Origin: a bacterium
GTDB taxonomy: Bacteria > Actinomycetota > Acidimicrobiia > Spongiisociales > JAENVV01
NCBI GenBank assembly: GCA_024639975.1
Contig: JAHEFX010000002.1
Coordinates: forward strand, 138-64,137
Length of the DNA stretch: 64,000 nucleotides
Direction of reading: 5' to 3'
The notes beneath the pieces are model-generated. The model saw nothing but the letters and a program-made list of their open reading frames with translations, was not told the origin of the DNA and did no database searches. This document shows, in pieces, positions 28,658 through 63,857 of the stretch (the stretch's first letter is position 1; each line of letters starts with the position of its first letter). Made by a program: the position numbers and the translations under genes.

Positions 28658-29755
28658 ATGACCTCGGACACCGACGACCGAATCACGGCAGACCAAGGCC
28701 GACCGCCCATCTGGCGCAACGGCACGTTCCTGAAGTGGGCTGCCCAGATCGTCGTACTGGCGACCCTCTTGGTCGCTGCGTGGATCGTCATCTCGACGGC
28801 GCTCCGCAATCTCGAGGCCCAGGGCCTCAGCTTCGACTGGGACTTCCTCGGGGACCCGGTCGGCTTCTCCATCGGAGAAGGGTTCACCCAACAGCCCGAA
28901 ACGGGCCTCGAGGCCCTGCTCGTGGGCGCCGTCAACTCTTTGCGGGTGATCGGCGTCGGCCTGTTGCTCGCCCTCGTGCTCGGTGTGGTGATGGGGATCG
29001 CCCGCCTCTCCAGCAACTGGCTGGTCAACCGGACGGCCCAGATCTACGTCGAGTCGATCCGAAACGTCCCACTCCTGCTCCAGATGATCTTCTGGAACGT
29101 CATTTTCATCAGCTTTGCCCCCCTCGATCCCGCCAACCTCGGTCCGATCGAGGATTGGTTCCTCGTCTCGGCCAAGGGAGTCTCGTTCGCCTTCATCTTT
29201 GGTACCGAGACCGTGTGGCAATGGCTCGTCTTCTTCGTTCTCGCCCTCTGGGTGGGACGCATCGTCTACAAGCGCCGTTTCGACCGCTTCGAGGAAACGG
29301 GCCACGAGACCCGTCCCATCCTCTTCGGCCTCCTGGCCGTGGTGGCCGTTGCGATCATCGGCTGGTTCGCCCATCCCGTCGCCGGGGCGTTCGAGTGGGT
29401 CTTCCACGGCATCGCGACGGCGCTCGACGCCGTACCTCCCATCGGCTGGAGCATCGTCATCGCCGTCGCCGCCGTTCTGCTCGGTGCCTGGTGGATCCGC
29501 CGGTTCCTGAACTCCTTCCGCACCCCCGCCGGCATGGCCAAGCTCACCGACGACGACTGGTTCCGAGTTGCCTTCGCCGGCGTCGTGGCCGTGGGCGTTG
29601 CCGCCTTCGTCCTGTTCTTCCCGGGTGTCATCGAAGCCGGCCAGAACGTCATCGTCGGGCTCTTCGACTGGATCGGGGACCGCTACGAGTGGCTGCGGAC
29701 CGGCGCCCCGCTCGACTTCCGCCAGCCAGGCGTGACCGGCGACCGGTTCCCGTAG
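28658..29755 (+). CDS. Amino-acid ABC permease (AapQ-like), N-terminal part, ending at an in-frame TAG
   Basis: It contains the conserved first permease segment ('GIARLSSNWLVNRTAQIYVESIRNVPLLLQMIFW') plus extra TM helices. The reading frame is the same as the next fragment (see findings). Confidence 0.75.
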   Translation: MTSDTDDRITADQGRPPIWRNGTFLKWAAQIVVLATLLVAAWIVISTALRNLEAQGLSFDWDFLGDPVGFSIGEGFTQQPETGLEALLVGAVNSLRVIGVGLLLALVLGVVMGIARLSSNWLVNRTAQIYVESIRNVPLLLQMIFWNVIFISFAPLDPANLGPIEDWFLVSAKGVSFAFIFGTETVWQWLVFFVLALWVGRIVYKRRFDRFEETGHETRPILFGLLAVVAVAIIGWFAHPVAGAFEWVFHGIATALDAVPPIGWSIVIAVAAVLLGAWWIRRFLNSFRTPAGMAKLTDDDWFRVAFAGVVAVGVAAFVLFFPGVIEAGQNVIVGLFDWIGDRYEWLRTGAPLDFRQPGVTGDRFP

Positions 29756-43713: not shown

Positions 43714-44511
43714 ATGAATCGCTTCCTCCATTCCGTGGGCGTGACCCTCATCCATTGGCGGCTGGCCGCCCAGTACGAGGTGCAGTACCGATTCAACTTC
43801 GTGCTCCAGATCATCCAGTCCGGGGTCCGACTCGTGACCGGTGTCGTCGCCATCCGCCTGGTGTTCGGCTACACGTCCGACCTCGGTGGATGGTCGGAAG
43901 CCGAGCTGCTGGCGGTCCTCGGCATCCACATCCTGCTCGGAGGCGTGCTCGGCACGTTCGTGATCCCGAACATGTTCACATTCATGTTCCAGGTCCGCGA
44001 GGGAGAGCTCGACTACGCCCTCGTCCGGCCGGTGGACGCGCAGATGTTCATCTCGACCCGCCAGATCCGGTTCTGGAACGTCGTCGACATCGCCACCGGT
44101 GCCATCGTGCTCGGCTGGGCGATGGCAGACCTGACAACCTCACTGTCCGCGCTGGACGTGCTGTGGTTCGCGGTCGGGCTCCTCTGTGGCCTGACCGTCC
44201 TCTACTGCGTGTGGATGGCATTCACGACGACATCGTTCTGGTTGATCAACACCGACGACATGGCCCAGCTCCTCAGTGGCCTGTACGACGCCGGCCGCTG
44301 GCCGATCAGGGTCTACCCGATGTGGCTGCAGGGCGTCCTGACGCTCATCGTCCCGATGGGCGTCGCCATCACGGTCCCAGCCGAGGCCCTGACGGACCGG
44401 CTCTCGCTCGGGGCCATGGCGCTGCTCATCGCCGTCACCATCGTCACGACGGTGCTCACCCGGGCCTTCTGGCTGTACGGCGTCCGCAACTACTCGGGTG
44501 CGTCTGCCTAG
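43714..44511 (+). CDS. ABC-2 family permease (second subunit)
   Basis: The product is multi-TM. The start is the internal ATG 43714 ('MNRFLHSVGVTLIHWRLAAQYEVQYRFNF'). Confidence 0.75.
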   Translation: MNRFLHSVGVTLIHWRLAAQYEVQYRFNFVLQIIQSGVRLVTGVVAIRLVFGYTSDLGGWSEAELLAVLGIHILLGGVLGTFVIPNMFTFMFQVREGELDYALVRPVDAQMFISTRQIRFWNVVDIATGAIVLGWAMADLTTSLSALDVLWFAVGLLCGLTVLYCVWMAFTTTSFWLINTDDMAQLLSGLYDAGRWPIRVYPMWLQGVLTLIVPMGVAITVPAEALTDRLSLGAMALLIAVTIVTTVLTRAFWLYGVRNYSGASA

Positions 44512-46409
44512 AAGCGGATCGTGCCCGGCTGCTTGAGCACGTCGGCCCAGGGATCGGCCGCGGCGGTGATCGGGCCGGGAGGTGTCGGCGCCTCGAAGAG
44601 AACCTGCTGTTCGATGCCGTCCAGCTCCTCGTCGAGGCGGGCGAGCACGTCGAGATCGATCAACGTGAACCGGCCGGGATCGGGTGAGGTCGGCAGCGAG
44701 AACAGAGCCATCTGGCTGCCGAGCTCGTCGACGGCCGACGGATCGATCGGAACGGTGCTGATCGGGGCGGGCTGGGCCTGTCGACGGGTGATCACCCAGC
44801 CGCCGAGGGCCAGGGCCGCGATCGCCGTGAGGGTCCAGAGCGCCGTGCGGCCGGCGGGGGCGGCGTCGGACGATTCGGCGACCCGGGAAGCGGCTTCGAC
44901 CGCCGGGATGACCGGCGTGGTCGCCCGCTCATAGGACGCCCGCAGGGAACCGACCTCGGCGCCGTCGGCCACCAGCCCGTCCCGGTAGGCGAGGAACGCG
45001 AAGGCGGCGTCGATGCGGTCGCCGGCGAGCGTGAAGTTCCACTCGTCCATGGCGGTCCGGACGCCGATCGGGGGCATCCACCCGAGGGAGTCGTCGGCGA
45101 GGGCGGCGTAGCGCTCTCGCAGCGTGGCCCGGGTCGCGAGGAGAGGGGCATCGATGACCGGCGCGACCCGCGTACCGATGATCTCGTCGGCCGCCGTTGC
45201 GCCGTTGGCGTCGAGTACGTCGAGCACCCGCCGCCAATCGGCTGGGGTGTCGGTCACGGTGAAGCCTGGGCCTGCGTAGGCAGAACGCCGGCCGGCCAAG
45301 TCGGCGAGGGCCCCTCGCATGCCGTCGATCCCGATGTCGTCGACGAGGGCGTCCACCACCCACCAGGAGGCGGCGTAGGCGGCCCGCTCCATATCGACCG
45401 TCGTCTGGTCGATGAGCGTCGTGTGGTCCCACTCGGCGAGCCGGATCATCTCGGACGGCGGCTCCGACGGCTCACCGGGCGTCCGTCCCAGGGCTGGTTC
45501 GACGAGGGCGGTGTAGGCCTCGGCGAGTCCCTCGGCGAACCAGCGCTCGGACGTGATGGTGTCGTTGAACCAGGCATGGCTCGCCTCGTGCACGAGGACG
45601 TGGACGTCGGGGTCGGTCCCCACCTCGATGGTGTCGGTTGCCGCGACGTACCAACCGTCGAATCCGTTGCGTTGTGGATCCGTCGACTGGGCGACGACCA
45701 GCGGACGACCGATCGGGTCGTCGATCCCGGTCAGGTCGGCGAGCTCCGGGAGGGCGAGGTCGAGGAGCGAGCGCATGCGGGTGACCCAGGCGTCCTCACC
45801 CGGCCAGGAACGGATCACGTAGGTGAAGTCGTCGACTTGGGCGATCTCGGTGACGAGGGAGCCGTCCTTGCGTGCCGAGACCGTGACGTCCCAGCCGGCC
45901 GGGTCGGTGATCTCCCGGGCGGACATGACGGTCCAGCCGTCCACCTGCGCCGTCTCGAGCACGGCGCCGTCGACCTTGATCTGGAAGTCGGACGGCACCC
46001 GGATCTCGACGGAGGCCGCTCCCGGGTCCCCCCAGACCCAGGTCGGGAACCACACATACGCCGCATTGGCCTTGATGGTGTCTGCCGCGTCGGATGAGCT
46101 GTTCGGGAGGTCGAAGGCGACCACGAGGGCGCCGGGCTCGTCCACGCCGACCCCGATGGCCGAGGGGCCCTCGACGATGGTGGGCTCCACGGGCTCGCCG
46201 TCGATGGTGGCCGAGACGTTGGTGGCACCCGGTGGCAGGCTGATCGCGCCGGCGGCGGTCGAGACGGTCACGCGGACGATTCCCTCGTCCACCAGCGCCT
46301 CGTACACGGTCGACGTGTCGGCGGCGTGGGCGGGCAGGGGACCGGTCATCGTCAGTGCGAGACCGGTCAGAAGCGCCGTGGCCAGTCCACGGCGGATCCA
46401 TCCGCTCAT
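44508..46409 (-). CDS. Secreted, C-terminally membrane-anchored gluzincin (M1-like) metallopeptidase-domain protein
   Basis: It has a signal peptide and the 'VLVHEASHAWFN...ERWFAEGLAEAY' (HExxH-X18-E) motif. A late TM helix (ALWTLTAIAALALGGWVI) is followed by a ~100-aa cytoplasmic tail. Confidence 0.7.
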   Translation of the reverse strand: MSGWIRRGLATALLTGLALTMTGPLPAHAADTSTVYEALVDEGIVRVTVSTAAGAISLPPGATNVSATIDGEPVEPTIVEGPSAIGVGVDEPGALVVAFDLPNSSSDAADTIKANAAYVWFPTWVWGDPGAASVEIRVPSDFQIKVDGAVLETAQVDGWTVMSAREITDPAGWDVTVSARKDGSLVTEIAQVDDFTYVIRSWPGEDAWVTRMRSLLDLALPELADLTGIDDPIGRPLVVAQSTDPQRNGFDGWYVAATDTIEVGTDPDVHVLVHEASHAWFNDTITSERWFAEGLAEAYTALVEPALGRTPGEPSEPPSEMIRLAEWDHTTLIDQTTVDMERAAYAASWWVVDALVDDIGIDGMRGALADLAGRRSAYAGPGFTVTDTPADWRRVLDVLDANGATAADEIIGTRVAPVIDAPLLATRATLRERYAALADDSLGWMPPIGVRTAMDEWNFTLAGDRIDAAFAFLAYRDGLVADGAEVGSLRASYERATTPVIPAVEAASRVAESSDAAPAGRTALWTLTAIAALALGGWVITRRQAQPAPISTVPIDPSAVDELGSQMALFSLPTSPDPGRFTLIDLDVLARLDEELDGIEQQVLFEAPTPPGPITAAADPWADVLKQPGTIRF

Positions 46410-51144: not shown

Positions 51145-51870
51145 ATGGCCAAGCGCCTTCAAACCCTGGGAGTCATTCTGGCCCTCTTCGGGCTCGGCTT
51201 CTTCGCAGCCTCGGGCTACACGTTCCTGCAGACCTCTGCGGGCGCCGACTCGCTCCAGGCGTTCAGCGAAGCCCAGAACGTAACGCTCTCCTACAACGAG
51301 GACGGCCAACTGATCGACCGTGGCACCACGGAGGGTGCAGCGGCAATCACCGCACTGCTCGAGGACAAGTGGGGCTACCCCGTCAAGGCCTCTGAGCTGG
51401 ACCCGAACGACCCGTTGGTCAACACCGGCTCCGAGTACATGTACCAGATGGCAACGATCGGTTTCCACGTGCTCCATGGCACGCAGACCATCGTCCTCGA
51501 CGAGCCCGTCGAGTACGACGGTGAGACCTTCGAAGCCGGCACCTACGAGGTGGTCGTCAACGAGATCGGTAGCGCCGATCGCGTGGACGCCGGTCTCGGC
51601 GGCTACTGGACCGACTTCGACCGCTCCCATCCGCTCGAGGGCCCGGCACGCGCCGGTGCCTGGAGCGGCACGGCACACGGCCTGTTCGGAGAGCTCGGCG
51701 TCGGCGCCGTCACGGCCAACATGCTGACCGTCGGCTACGGCATCGCCGGCATCCTGGCCGGCCTCGGTGCGTTCGCACTGATCGCCGGTCTCGGACTCAT
51801 GTGGGCCGTCAAGGGTGACGAGGACGTCGTCGTCACGAGGCCGACCCGCGAACCTGTCTCAGTCGGCTAG
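51145..51870 (+). CDS. Hypothetical bitopic membrane protein (TM at both ends, ~170-aa external domain)
   Basis: The 241-aa ORF has an AAGGGAAGGA SD. I recognise no family. Confidence 0.6.
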   Translation: MAKRLQTLGVILALFGLGFFAASGYTFLQTSAGADSLQAFSEAQNVTLSYNEDGQLIDRGTTEGAAAITALLEDKWGYPVKASELDPNDPLVNTGSEYMYQMATIGFHVLHGTQTIVLDEPVEYDGETFEAGTYEVVVNEIGSADRVDAGLGGYWTDFDRSHPLEGPARAGAWSGTAHGLFGELGVGAVTANMLTVGYGIAGILAGLGAFALIAGLGLMWAVKGDEDVVVTRPTREPVSVG

Positions 51871-57744: not shown

Positions 57745-57836
57745 GCGCTCATCTCGAGTGGTGGAGGGACAGGCCCTTCGAAGCCACGGCAACCGACCGC
57801 AAGGAACCGGTGCCAATGCCTGAACGATGAGATCGC
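57745..57836 (+). promoter_or_regulatory. SAM-I-type (S-box) riboswitch aptamer, apparently without an internal P4 hairpin
   Basis: The RNA reads CUCAUC-UCGAGUGGUGGAGGGACAGGCCCUUCGAAGCCACGGCAACC-..-GGUGCCAAUGCCUGAAC-GAUGAG. P1, the k-turn-type P2, GGCAACC and GGUGCCAAU are all present. Confidence 0.85.
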
Positions 57837-57980: not shown

Positions 57981-60613
<2,633 letters not shown>

Positions 60614-61003: not shown

Positions 61004-61885
61004 GTGATCCAACTCCCGAGTGCCCTCGCCGGGTCGCTCCCCCGGTTCGGAGCGAAGGGCGATGACTGGCGCCTTCGTCTTCCGGCGATGGTCGAGGCGG
61101 CCGCCACGCGCTGGGACCTCGAGATCGGTCCACCGTTCGAGCCCGGTGGTGTCACCTCGTGGGTCGCGCCCGCCTCCACGGTCTCAGGGGTGGATGTCGT
61201 CCTCAAGATCGTCGTCCCGCACGAGGAGGCTGCCGCCGAGGCCGCGGGTCTCACGGCTTGGGACGGCACGGGGGCGGTCCGTCTCCTCGGCCACGACGCC
61301 GACTCCTGGACGCTGCTCCTCGAACGGCTCGGTCCGGGGGACCTGGAGGCCGCCGGGCCGACGGTGTGGCTCCCGGCGATGTTGGACCTTCTGGCCGACC
61401 TGTGGTCCGCGCCCGTGCCCGACGGGGTGCCGTCGGTCGCCGATGTCGTCGCCCCTTGGCCGGGGTTGATGCGCTCCCGCTCGAAGGCCGCACACTGGGA
61501 CGCCGCGGTGGTCGACCTGGCCATCGAGATCCTCGACGGCTGGCCCGGTGGGGTCACCGACCCGGTCCTGATGCACGGCGACCTCCACCCCGAGAACGTG
61601 ATGGCCCGCGACGGCGAGTGGGTGAGCATCGACCCGAAGCCGATGGTCGGTGACCGTGCCTTTGACCTCCGGCAGGTAATCCGGGCCGTCGTCGACCCGA
61701 ACGACCCCCGGCCGGCCGGCCCGCTGGCCGACATCGTTGCCGCCACCGGTGTGGACCGGGATCGCGCACTCGGCTGGACGTTGGCGGTCCAGGTCGAGAG
61801 TGCCATCTGGGCGTTGCCGCACGACCCGGCGGAGGCAGAAGAGGACTACCGGCTGGCGGCGGCCTGCGCCGACCTGCTCGGCTAG
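61004..61885 (+). CDS. Aminoglycoside/hydroxyurea-resistance-kinase family phosphotransferase (APH(6)-like)
   Basis: 'LMHGDLHPENVM......W.SIDPKPMVGDRAFDL' is present. The start is GTG. Confidence 0.75.
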   Translation: MIQLPSALAGSLPRFGAKGDDWRLRLPAMVEAAATRWDLEIGPPFEPGGVTSWVAPASTVSGVDVVLKIVVPHEEAAAEAAGLTAWDGTGAVRLLGHDADSWTLLLERLGPGDLEAAGPTVWLPAMLDLLADLWSAPVPDGVPSVADVVAPWPGLMRSRSKAAHWDAAVVDLAIEILDGWPGGVTDPVLMHGDLHPENVMARDGEWVSIDPKPMVGDRAFDLRQVIRAVVDPNDPRPAGPLADIVAATGVDRDRALGWTLAVQVESAIWALPHDPAEAEEDYRLAAACADLLG

Positions 61886-62520
61886 GCCATCGACCAGAAG
61901 TCGCCGGTCAGGCCGTATCGATCGAAGGTCGCCTCGGCGAGCTCGGGCCCGATCGGCATCCACGCCCGGTCCATCCGTCCCTGGTACCACTCGGCGCTCA
62001 GGTCGTACATCACCTGGACCGGCACCGTCTCGCCTCGCGGGTTGTCGGTGCGCGCCAGCCAATCCTCGAGCTCGGCTTCCGACCGGAAGCCCTGGATGGT
62101 GCCTCAGGTGAAGCCGATGTCCGTCCAGAACTCGCGGGGTGGAACCACGAAGTGGATGATCCCGTCCGGAGCGACCCTGCCGTCCTCCACCGTCCACGCG
62201 GCAACTCCGTCCTTGACCACCCGGCCGTCGCCGAGGAGGGCGAGGATGGCGAAGGCATCCCAGGCGCAGTTGGCATGGATCGTCTTGCCGGCGAGCACGG
62301 CGTCGTAGCCGGTCTCCACGGACGAGAACGGGTGGGCCATCCGGACATGGTCGGGTCGATCGAGCACGACTCGCTGCTCCGACCCGAGGTGCGTGAACGA
62401 GTCGACGACCACCTGCTCGGTGAGGGAGGTGCGCTCGGCGACGGCGGCGGCGGTCGGGTCGACCGTGTCCACGAAGCACTCGTAGATCGCGGATCGGACG
62501 GCCCTGTCGGTGTCGTTCAC
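61882..62520 (-). CDS. MerB-like (alkylmercury lyase family) protein with in-frame UGA (62104..62106), a candidate selenocysteine codon
   Basis: 'HANCAWDAF' matches MerB Cys96-x-x-Asp99. ORF 62104..62520 stops at TGA, yet the same frame continues 73 codons (GTIQGFRSEAELEDWLA...FWSMA*) to TAG 61882. The start GTG 62520 overlaps the pepP stop. Confidence 0.6.
62074..62091 (-). promoter_or_regulatory. Candidate bacterial SECIS hairpin GGCUUCC-GGUC-GGAAGCC
   Basis: It begins 12 nt 3' of the in-frame UGA and has a 7-bp stem with a GGUC apical loop. A possible lower stem pairs AUCC with GGAU. Confidence 0.5.
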
Positions 62521-63857
62521 GCCATCGCTTCTTCGACCTCTGGCTTGGTGCGCGGGATCGGGGGCCCGAGCACCTCGGCACCGTCGACGGTGACCCGGAC
62601 GACGTCCTCGATCCGAACCCCGCCGACGCCGACCCAATCCTCGAGACGCTCCCAGTCCCAGAAGCCGTCGAAGTCGCCGTCGGCCCGGAACCGTTCGATG
62701 AGGGGGCCGATCAGGTAGGCGCCCGGCTCGACGGTGATGACCATTCCCTCGCGGAGGGGCTTGCCGAACCGCAGGTTGGACGGGCCGAAGACGTCGGACC
62801 GGACGAACTCGGCGTCGTAGCCGACGAGGTCCTCGCCCAGGCCCTCCATGTCGTGCACCTCGATGCCGAGCAGGTGGCCCACCCCGTGGGGGAACACCAG
62901 TCCATACGCGCCGTCCTCGGCGGCGGCGTCGAGGTCCCCCCCGCACAGGCCCAGGTCGGCGAAGCCCTCCAGGATCTTCCGCCCGACGGCATGGTGGACG
63001 TCCCGCCAGGCGACACCCGGTCGCATCATTGCGAGGGCAAGGGCCTGGGCATCGAAGACGATGTCGTACAGCGCCTCGGCCCGCCCGTCGAAGGTGCCGG
63101 TGACCGGCATGGTGCGGGTGACGTCCGAGGCGTATCCGCCGTCGGAGGTGACGCCTCCGTCGTGGAGGAGTAGGTCGCCCGCCTCCATCCGGCCGGTCTG
63201 CCCGAACTGGTGGAGGACCTCACCGTGGGTGGTGAAGATCACCGGGTACGCCCATTCCCCACCGGTGCCGGCCACGACTTCCCCGAGGTGGCGGGCGACG
63301 GCGGCCACCTCGCAGCCGGGGGAGATGGCGGCCATGGCGGCGGCGTGTAGTCGGCGGGCGCGCTCGAGGGCCTGGTCGATCTCGGCGATCTCCTCTTCGT
63401 CCTTCACCTCCCGCAGCTGGGCAACGGCCCTGATCAGGTCGTGGGATGGTGCGACGTCACCCAGCAGGTCCTGGAGCTGGTCCCGTTGGCTCGGTCTCGG
63501 GGCGGGGAGGGTGAGTGGGGTGCGTCCGGCGAGGGCGCTCGGCAGGTCCGAGGCCGACCGATACGAGTCGGCCCCGGCGGTGGCCGCCCGCTCGGCGAGC
63601 GGTGGGCGGGGTCCGTGCCAGACGATGTCTTCCAGGTCCGGCTCCACGCCGAACAGCGTCGACTCGCCGGAGGCCGTGTCGACCAGGAGGGCGGCATCCG
63701 GCTCGTCCAATCCGGTGAAGTAGAGGAACGTGGCGTCCTGGCGGAACGGATGGTGGTCGGCCGGGTGGTCCCGGACGGTCGCCGTGTGCCCGAGCAGGAG
63801 CACCAGCGAGTCGGGCAGCAGTTGAGCGAGGCGGGAGCGGCGGCCGCGGTGGTCCAT
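62517..63857 (-). CDS. Xaa-Pro aminopeptidase (M24B family)
   Basis: 'FRQDATFLYFTG', 'GGYASDVTRT', 'HGVGHLLGIEVHD' and 'TVEPG.Y' are present. The ATG lies 7 nt after TACCCT. Confidence 0.88.
   Translation of the reverse strand: MDHRGRRSRLAQLLPDSLVLLLGHTATVRDHPADHHPFRQDATFLYFTGLDEPDAALLVDTASGESTLFGVEPDLEDIVWHGPRPPLAERAATAGADSYRSASDLPSALAGRTPLTLPAPRPSQRDQLQDLLGDVAPSHDLIRAVAQLREVKDEEEIAEIDQALERARRLHAAAMAAISPGCEVAAVARHLGEVVAGTGGEWAYPVIFTTHGEVLHQFGQTGRMEAGDLLLHDGGVTSDGGYASDVTRTMPVTGTFDGRAEALYDIVFDAQALALAMMRPGVAWRDVHHAVGRKILEGFADLGLCGGDLDAAAEDGAYGLVFPHGVGHLLGIEVHDMEGLGEDLVGYDAEFVRSDVFGPSNLRFGKPLREGMVITVEPGAYLIGPLIERFRADGDFDGFWDWERLEDWVGVGGVRIEDVVRVTVDGAEVLGPPIPRTKPEVEEAMA

Follow-up and report, generated by a model that had tools for sequence, protein, structure and literature searches.

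The stretch analysed here, hereafter the window, consists of 64,000 nucleotides (64 kb) of contig JAHEFX010000002.1 from an actinobacterium of the class Acidimicrobiia. Its minus strand carries a gene resembling merB, the gene of the organomercurial lyase MerB, with a reading frame of 212 codons whose sole interruption is an in-frame TGA at codon 139 (Table 1). A spacer of 12 nucleotides (nt) separates this TGA from a hairpin similar to the bacterial selenocysteine insertion sequence (bSECIS). Our results indicate that this is very probably a genuine gene for a protein of the MerB fold in which the UGA is decoded as selenocysteine (Sec). An earlier note on this DNA had given coordinates for the start, the TGA, the 73-codon extension, the TAG and the hairpin. 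All of them hold, and translation of the joined product (138 + 1 + 73 residues) confirmed the length of 212 amino acids. The GTG start agrees with the MNDTDR N-termini of two relatives (P0002 and P0003). The G+C content at third codon positions (GC3) is 0.91 before and 0.91 after the TGA, and no other in-frame TGA in the 64 kb has coding-type GC3 on both flanks.

Table 1. Features of the MerB-like locus and its upstream neighbour, in window positions
Feature	Position	Strand	Description
MerB-like gene, predicted selenoprotein, complete	61882..62520	(-)	GTG start at 62520, 138 codons, UGA (proposed Sec139), 73 codons, TAG at 61884..61882; product of 212 amino acids
In-frame UGA, codon 139, probably read as Sec; equivalent of MerB Cys159	62104..62106	(-)	TGA in the orthologs; Cys in this column in the Cys forms; alignment to MerB; same codon in 4 assemblies
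Spacer of 12 nt from UGA to hairpin	62092..62103	(-)	GGCACCAUCCAG; length invariant in the family (ungapped alignment A3, 81 sequences)
bSECIS hairpin (predicted)	62074..62091	(-)	5' arm 62091..62085 GGCUUCC, loop 62084..62081 GGUC, 3' arm 62080..62074 GGAAGCC; encodes G-F-R-S-E-A
Cys85 codon, equivalent of MerB Cys96 (motif ANCAWD)	62266..62268	(-)	Invariant in alignments A1, A2 and A4; aligned to YAWCALD of MerB
Asp88 codon, equivalent of MerB Asp99 (proton donor)	62257..62259	(-)	Conserved in at least 90%; aligned to Asp99
Aminopeptidase P / M24 peptidase gene, upstream context	62517..63857	(-)	PF00557 and PF05195; ends in a TGA that shares bases with the GTG at which the MerB-like gene begins (GTGA)

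Relatives of the product were searched across 5.8 billion proteins, which gave 81 matches. About 65 of these were 136–145 residues long and ended precisely at ..DIGFT, and about a dozen full-length relatives had a Cys in the following column. A scan of GTDB with one genome per species revealed at least 579 relatives, and the DNA of the best 80 was examined. The resulting set of 81 orthologs (33%–50% identity) covers at least six phyla; the carriers among the best 80 were Acidimicrobiia, Thermoleophilia/Gaiella, Acidobacteriota (Vicinamibacterales and Thermoanaerobaculia), Gemmatimonadota, Marinimicrobia, and Chloroflexota.

The codon in the Sec column was TGA in all 81 orthologs; TAA, TAG, or a sense codon was present in none. 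The true terminators of the same 81 genes were TGA in 44, TAG in 26, and TAA in 11. Ordinary termination would therefore not give an internal codon that is always TGA, for which the naive probability, with the relatedness of the sequences ignored, is about 3e-22. After the TGA, the frame stays open for 66–88 codons in 80 of the 81 orthologs (median 73), and none of the 81 genes has a start codon after the TGA. The mean amino acid identity was 0.40 downstream and 0.46 upstream of the TGA, with equal GC3 on both sides. Downstream, the pattern x-x-I-x-x-F-R-S-E..W...G......WY..R...W.......GL.G.FW was kept among the orthologs, and the motif at the Sec site, F-T-U-G in the window gene, can be written [FYVH]-T-U-x for 81 of 81.

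The family extends well beyond these orthologs. There were 827 cluster representatives below E = 1e-10, and at least 126 of the best 150 stop exactly at ..DIGFT. The clade occurs in both large protein collections, where its members are present only as proteins cut at the Sec codon. Among the closest cluster representatives, about 130 were Sec forms and four were Cys forms; this ratio implies a strong advantage of selenium at this catalytic position. Our results thus show that the family is an almost entirely Sec-containing clade of PF03243.

The way in which these genes were deposited also deserves mention. One full-length protein of 218 amino acids (P0004; L081:100-756, JGI 3300059816) has Trp at the Sec position, but its DNA reads TGA; the gene was evidently called under a code in which TGA means Trp. 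At five other loci, the last 42–47 codons of the selenoprotein frame were called as a separate small open reading frame (L082:1167-1310, L083:1290-1433, L084:781-924, L091:2662-2790, and L092:582-725). These calls share the frame of the upstream 138-residue call, so that one gene is recorded as two. For the window gene, an alternative genetic code was rejected because the upstream M24 gene of the same operon itself ends in TGA, and a split gene was considered and likewise rejected.

The two closest relatives (80% and 73% identity) keep the TGA at codon 139, the TAG at codon 213, and the hairpin. Compared with the window, the downstream codons of these relatives are identical, synonymous, or nonsynonymous in 47, 12, and 14 cases in one and in 52, 12, and 9 cases in the other. 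Judged from these codons, purifying selection downstream of the TGA appears to be at least as strong as upstream. Four runs, each sequenced and assembled independently (SRR12825424, -425, -426, and -429), gave the identical TGA; two of them carry single-nucleotide differences from the window elsewhere. The codon is also present in the closer relatives L081, L091, and L092. The earlier note had named clearly decayed copies in close relatives and an erroneous base in the assembly as findings that would speak against its proposal; the relatives proved intact on both sides of the TGA, and the four assemblies agreed.

These data bear on two trivial explanations. In the first, sequencing or assembly has turned a TGC or TGT into TGA, which differs from either by one base; with the same codon in four runs, in all 80 orthologs, and in the three closer relatives, the probability of this is practically negligible. 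In the second, a MerB-like gene that once encoded Cys was cut short by a nonsense mutation, and what follows the TGA is a relic whose frame a high G+C content has held open. This pseudogene would be in keeping with a G+C content of 68%, at which long open frames arise by chance, and with the gene callers and databases that annotate only the part of 138 amino acids. We nevertheless consider it extremely improbable, since the TGA is shared by all orthologs from several phyla, the downstream part has 40% identity among orthologs, a GC3 of 0.91, and signs of purifying selection in the closest relatives, and both a domain profile and a confident single-domain model extend across the TGA, as described below.

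The joined protein matched the Pfam MerB profile (PF03243) with 57.8 bits (cutoff 27) from position 1 to 126 of its 126 positions, across the TGA, whereas the truncated part alone scored 25.9 bits. As the earlier note had supposed, the downstream part thus continues the MerB family. A profile of the family, searched against the PDB, found MerB2 (5C17) with E = 1.9e-22 and MerB (3F2G, 1S6L) with E of about 1e-13. In these alignments, the Sec column corresponds to the Cys of F-C-S in the C160S mutant of MerB, that is Cys159, and to the Cys of G-T-C in MerB2, which confirms the earlier note in its assignment of the UGA to Cys159. ANCAWD is aligned to YAWCALD, which makes Cys85 equivalent to Cys96 and Asp88 equivalent to Asp99. 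A PDB search with the single sequence had been misleading (glucarate dehydratase with E = 0.005 and MerB2 with only E = 0.2), and this was resolved by the family profile.

The read-through product was predicted by AlphaFold2 as one compact domain, with a predicted local distance difference test score of 94.9 and a predicted template modelling score of 0.90, and no weak segment around residue 139. In a Foldseek search of the PDB, the top 11 matches were all MerB or MerB2 (E from 3e-08 to 2e-04), with template modelling scores of 0.57–0.69 over about 195 residues for ten crystal structures and 0.46 for the nuclear magnetic resonance model 1s6l. The sequence alignment shows a putative Cys85/Asp88/Sec139 triad in an active site of the MerB type.

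Residues 1–60 of the protein (window 62343-62520 (-)) resemble winged-helix DNA-binding domains. Foldseek matched them to DtxR/IdeR N-domains over about 60 residues with probability 1.0, and weak profile matches to GntR, LexA, and ZitR were found. This likeness could reflect the known N-terminal region of MerB or an actual role in nucleic acid binding.

The hairpin of the window has a perfect 7-bp stem and a 4-nt loop. Published bSECIS constraints include a loop of 3–9 nt, an upper stem of 4–16 bp, G in the first two loop positions, a distance of 16–37 nt between UGA and loop, and a minimum free energy of −7.5 kcal/mol or lower (PMC13188914, Fig. 2A). With a 4-nt GGUC loop, 7 bp, 19 nt from UGA to loop, and −12.9 kcal/mol, the window hairpin agrees with all of these values, and the local folds of 72 of the 81 family members reach −7.5 kcal/mol or lower. 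As a composite motif, TGA-N15-TTCCGGTCGGAA is found a single time in the window; the expectation from 100 shuffles is zero.

The hairpin is maintained across the family. All sequences of alignment A3 share the same register of UGA, 12 nt, 7-bp stem, and 4-nt loop, and the loop is GGUC in 76 of 81. Standard pairs fill 92.1% of the stem cells, against 44%–63% when the 3' arm is slid by one to three columns. Compensatory double changes were found in five of the seven stem pairs; for example, pair 17–32 is UA in 29 sequences, CG in 24, and GC in 14, and pair 16–33 is GC in 24, CG in 22, and UA in 4. The covariation score was 0.356, compared with 0.157 in shuffled alignments, and none of 500 shuffles reached the observed value. 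RNAalifold independently predicted the same stem. Covariation in related genomes, which the earlier note had left as a point to be checked, is therefore present.

Because the inner stem and the loop are encoded by F-R-S-E, we also tested synonymous sites, with the codon usage of the same genes as background. Arg was CGG in 74 of 78 sequences (background 33%), Ser was TCG in 77 of 79 (37%), and Glu was GAA in 59 of 77 (29%). This fixation persists in genomes with a G+C content of 45%–52%. The residues on either side of F-R-S-E (A3 columns 16-18/31-33; window 62089-62091/62074-62076) covary in a manner driven by the stem: the pairs are G..A (GGC/GCC), A..G (GCC/GGC), C..A (UGC/GCA), L..E (CUC/GAG), F..E (UUC/GAA), and L..K (CUU/AAG). 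No structural contact underlies this covariation at the protein level.

A covariance model built from the alignment found one site per locus in 900 kb and a single extra match. The latter (L002:7322-7375 (-), DHIO01000046.1, a metagenome-assembled genome of Acidimicrobiia UBA4744) belongs to a second MerB-like gene, more divergent than the first and convergent with it at a distance of about 0.9 kb, with a coding part that extends about 480 nt upstream of the hairpin. This gene has an in-frame TGA, 12 nt, and CUCUUCC-GGUC-GGAAGAG (...KASFI-U-DSMNLFRSEEH...), and its C-x-x-D motif reads C-G-L-E. It hints at further Sec-containing subfamilies.

The Cys forms provide a natural comparison. A Cys is aligned exactly to the UGA column in P0045, P0060, P0069, P0072, P0077, and P0081, in line with what the earlier note had expected of homologs. 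Within the clade, there are four Cys forms (P0151, P0155, P0221, and P0228), in which F-R-S-E has decayed to FRTE, FDSE, FESV, and FHSV. After the Cys codon, the Cys-form loci have three to five of the seven pairs and no GGUC loop, and gave no match to the covariance model. The hairpin is thus missing where the TGA has been replaced by Cys, which means that the element travels with the TGA. One of the Cys forms, P0151 (313 amino acids), is fused at its C-terminus to an apparent helix-turn-helix segment of the LuxR/FixJ type (...LTQRELIVLELL...IAHLLELSPHTVDTHVRNIYAKLKV...); from its sequence, such a fusion would point to regulation or sensing as the role of one variant at least.

The UGA could also be a genuine terminator, with a functional product of 138 residues, 73 codons that are untranslated or translated separately, and a hairpin that serves in mRNA stability or attenuation. 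Termination is the default in a genome without Sec machinery, and some termination occurs at the UGA even in known selenoprotein genes. This explanation is very improbable in view of the absence of any start codon after the TGA, the internal stop that is always TGA while the real terminators use all three codons, the conservation downstream that matches that upstream, and the hairpin that vanishes exactly where a Cys codon takes the place of the TGA. In addition, the 138-residue part has neither the third catalytic residue nor the C-terminal third of the fold.

Taken together, these data strongly support the insertion of Sec at the UGA of the MerB-like gene, and we infer the following sequence of events. 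A ribosome would reach the UGA at codon 139, where the hairpin 12 nt downstream would recruit SelB with Sec-tRNA(Sec); Sec would be inserted, and the 73 further codons would then be translated. By analogy with MerB, the metal of an organometal or organometalloid substrate would be held by the thiolate together with the selenolate. The Asp would donate a proton to the carbon as it leaves, and the carbon–metal bond would be cleaved.

Recoding to a residue other than Sec was considered as well, either to Cys by a tRNA-Sec-like tRNA or to Trp or Cys by near-cognate read-through stimulated by the hairpin. The parts of the carrier genomes that were searched showed no Sec machinery, and natural recoding of UGA from Sec to Cys by tRNA-Sec-like tRNAs has been reported in some uncultured bacteria. 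The hairpin, however, fits the model of a SelB-type bSECIS in loop, stem length, and spacing, and it has the loop and the distance of the fdhF element of Escherichia coli. The site is that of a catalytic Cys, the classical position of Cys/Sec exchange, and, given that variants with TGC/TGT exist, it would be unparsimonious for hundreds of species to keep a UGA and a hairpin just for the insertion of Cys. We therefore regard such recoding as quite improbable.

The immediate neighbours of the MerB-like gene are the M24 peptidase gene and a kinase gene of the aminoglycoside phosphotransferase type. The GTGA overlap with the M24 gene suggests translational coupling, and it occurs also in L091 and L092. 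The operon with an M24 aminopeptidase, which the earlier note had proposed, is therefore real here; it is confined to the closest relatives and does not extend to the family. On the other side, the 3' end of the MerB-like gene overlaps by 4 nt (window 61882-61885) that of the convergent gene at 61004-61885 (+), which is similar to aminoglycoside/hydroxyurea kinases (PF04655), and no intergenic space for a terminator exists between the two. In the clustering of neighbours across loci, the large clusters turned out to be alternative-frame artefacts of the MerB-like gene itself and not operon partners.

The window as a whole is ordinary chromosomal core, with genes for purine biosynthesis, guaB, ppk, pstSCAB-phoU, ClpB, and metY/metX. 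An S-adenosylmethionine (S-box) riboswitch (Rfam RF00162, 67.6 bits) lies at 57746-57833 (+), directly 5' of a two-gene operon. The first gene (58077-59399 (+)) encodes a pyridoxal phosphate enzyme of Cys/Met metabolism, a metY-like O-acetylhomoserine sulfhydrylase, and the second (59396-60613 (+)), which overlaps the first by 4 nt, encodes an alpha/beta hydrolase, a metX-like homoserine O-acetyltransferase. Three coding-type open reading frames had no Pfam match at E ≤ 1e-6: 44508-46409 (-) with 633 amino acids, 28658-29755 (+) with 365, and 51145-51870 (+) with 241.

Several observations weigh against the proposed decoding or the proposed chemistry. With regard to decoding, selA, selB, selD, and a tRNA-Sec gene were all missing from the window and from about 0.8 Mb of sequence flanking 80 related loci. 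ARAGORN scans of the window and of 60 loci detected no tRNA-Sec, and tblastn with E. coli SelA, SelB, and SelD gave no matches in the window or any of the loci, which cover only a small part of each genome. Taken alone, the window hairpin is unexceptional (z = −1.77; 10 of 200 shuffles fold equally well). The conservation of its sequence partly overlaps that of the peptide F-R-S-E, and some of it could reflect constraint on the protein. Rfam at gathering thresholds over the whole window, and a search of 61850-62250 at a permissive E-value, found no SECIS family; these searches returned only a chance match to flpD and the riboswitch.

With regard to chemistry, merA, merR, merT, and merP are absent from the neighbouring genes, and the window as a whole carries housekeeping genes and gives no mer operon context. 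Nor does the MerB-like gene have a conserved neighbour, as the top neighbour family was found in at most 8 of 81 loci. The scores stayed far below the cutoffs of the curated MerB equivalog models (NF009710, 17 against 193 bits; NF033555, 15.1 against 200), and among 31 family members the best equivalog E-value was 8.7e-17, again with scores far under the cutoffs. A selenolate–Hg bond could also hinder release of the product. By analogy with MerB, the chances that the product would be an organometal(loid) lyase seem to us evenly balanced, and an organomercurial as the particular substrate would be less probable still. The context of the putative lyase gene points to no particular substrate: there is no mer operon, the window carries core genes, no neighbour family is shared by more than a few loci, and the Cys forms stand outside mer operons.

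If the UGA is read as Sec, the annotation of hundreds of family entries, now cut to about 140 residues or split in two, would be corrected. For phyla whose SECIS elements are so far poorly described, the family would also yield a clean SECIS model. Outside the classical anaerobes, it appears to rank among the bacterial selenoprotein families of wider distribution, and it provides candidates for organometal turnover outside mer operons. The hairpin is a compact example of an RNA structure that constrains a coding sequence, and the constraint relaxes when Sec reverts to Cys.

A bolder proposal, which we think rather unlikely, is that the window gene is the founding example of a large uncatalogued family (at least 579 species, which form over 120 clusters at 50% identity) of chromosomal, stand-alone, mer-independent MerB-fold lyases with a Cys/Asp/Sec triad, mainly in abundant soil and marine lineages. 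The carrier lineages Acidimicrobiia, Gaiella/Thermoleophilia, Vicinamibacterales, Gemmatimonadota, and Marinimicrobia are mostly aerobic. If the proposal is true, and methylmercury or another organometal(loid) is cleaved, the family would be a candidate agent of environmental demethylation that does not depend on mer. It would also speak against the view that selenoproteins are seldom kept by aerobes.

The hairpin can be compared with the SECIS of E. coli fdhF. The K-12 genome shows the UGA at codon 140; the 11 nt and the GGUUGCA-GGUC-UGCACC that follow are just as the earlier note had given them. Both elements are situated in the coding sequence directly 3' of the UGA and have the apical loop GGUC. 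The spacer of the window element is one nucleotide longer (12 against 11 nt), and, counted from the U of UGA, its loop begins at position 23, against 22 in fdhF. The stem sequences differ, and the window has a perfect 7-bp stem without the bulged U, which is important in the fdhF SECIS. The covariance model of the family did not detect the SECIS when it was run on E. coli fdhF, so the likeness is limited to loop and spacing.

With MerB and MerB2 (EC 4.99.1.2; PDB 3F0P, 3F2G, and 5C17), the window protein shares the fold, and the positions of Cys96, Asp99, and Cys159 are occupied by Cys85, Asp88, and, as proposed, Sec139. It differs from them in the Sec that would replace Cys159, the lack of an equivalent of Cys160, an identity of only 15%–17%, and an additional conserved C-terminal segment, WY..R...W...GL.G.FW. 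In contrast to merB, the gene is located in the chromosome among housekeeping genes and not on a mobile element or in a mer operon. Closer to it are the Cys-form actinobacterial proteins annotated as organomercurial lyase (e.g., P0045 of Streptomyces sp. NPDC020681), which share 31%–37% full-length identity with the window protein. Their domains are arranged in the same way, with the C-terminal extension included, and the Cys and Asp motif is also the same. Like the window gene, their genes stand alone outside mer operons. These proteins differ in having Cys (H-T-C..QR.FC) at the Sec position, and their genes have no hairpin after that codon.

The nearest precedent is SaoL, the selenocysteine-assisted organometallic lyase, a MerB-like selenoprotein with a C-U motif that is encoded in the nine-gene SAO locus of strict anaerobes and whose Sec is aligned to Cys159; 45 SaoL loci were reported (Haft and Gwadz, bioRxiv 10.1101/2022.07.06.499078; NF040728). 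The selenoenzyme that the earlier note had considered unusual is, in this respect, not unprecedented. SaoL and the family described here have in common PF03243, the MerB fold, a UGA-encoded Sec at the Cys159 position, the equivalents of Cys96 and Asp99, the routine truncation at the UGA in databases, and a suspected organometallic substrate. Membership of the window gene in SaoL would be in keeping with the shared profile, the Sec alignment, and the truncation, but it is highly improbable: the score against NF040728 is 21.1 bits where 140 are required, and all of 31 family members fall far short of that value. The motif is T-U-G instead of C-U. The gene stands alone, with no conserved neighbours, in contrast to SaoL, which is the marker of a locus of nine genes that include ABC transporter selenoproteins. 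The carriers differ too, being soil and marine Actinomycetota (Acidimicrobiia among them), Acidobacteriota, Gemmatimonadota, Marinimicrobia, and Chloroflexota in one case and Clostridia, spirochaetes, and deltaproteobacteria in the other.

In selenoproteome reviews of 2022 and 2026, only SaoL was listed under PF03243; further full-text searches, limited to openly accessible literature, brought up nothing else, and NCBIfam release 20 has no model that captures the clade of the window gene. What stands from the claim of an unusual enzyme is that it belongs to a different branch, for which we found no catalogue entry. The precedent of SaoL removes much of the surprise, yet the family is worth reporting for its size, its taxonomic breadth, its near-exclusive use of Sec, and this absence from catalogues. 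With at least 579 species genomes against the 45 reported SaoL loci, we therefore class it as a second, separate, and far more widespread Sec-containing branch of the MerB superfamily. Two branches that look independent strengthen the idea that selenolate-assisted carbon–metal chemistry is a recurrent solution in the MerB fold.

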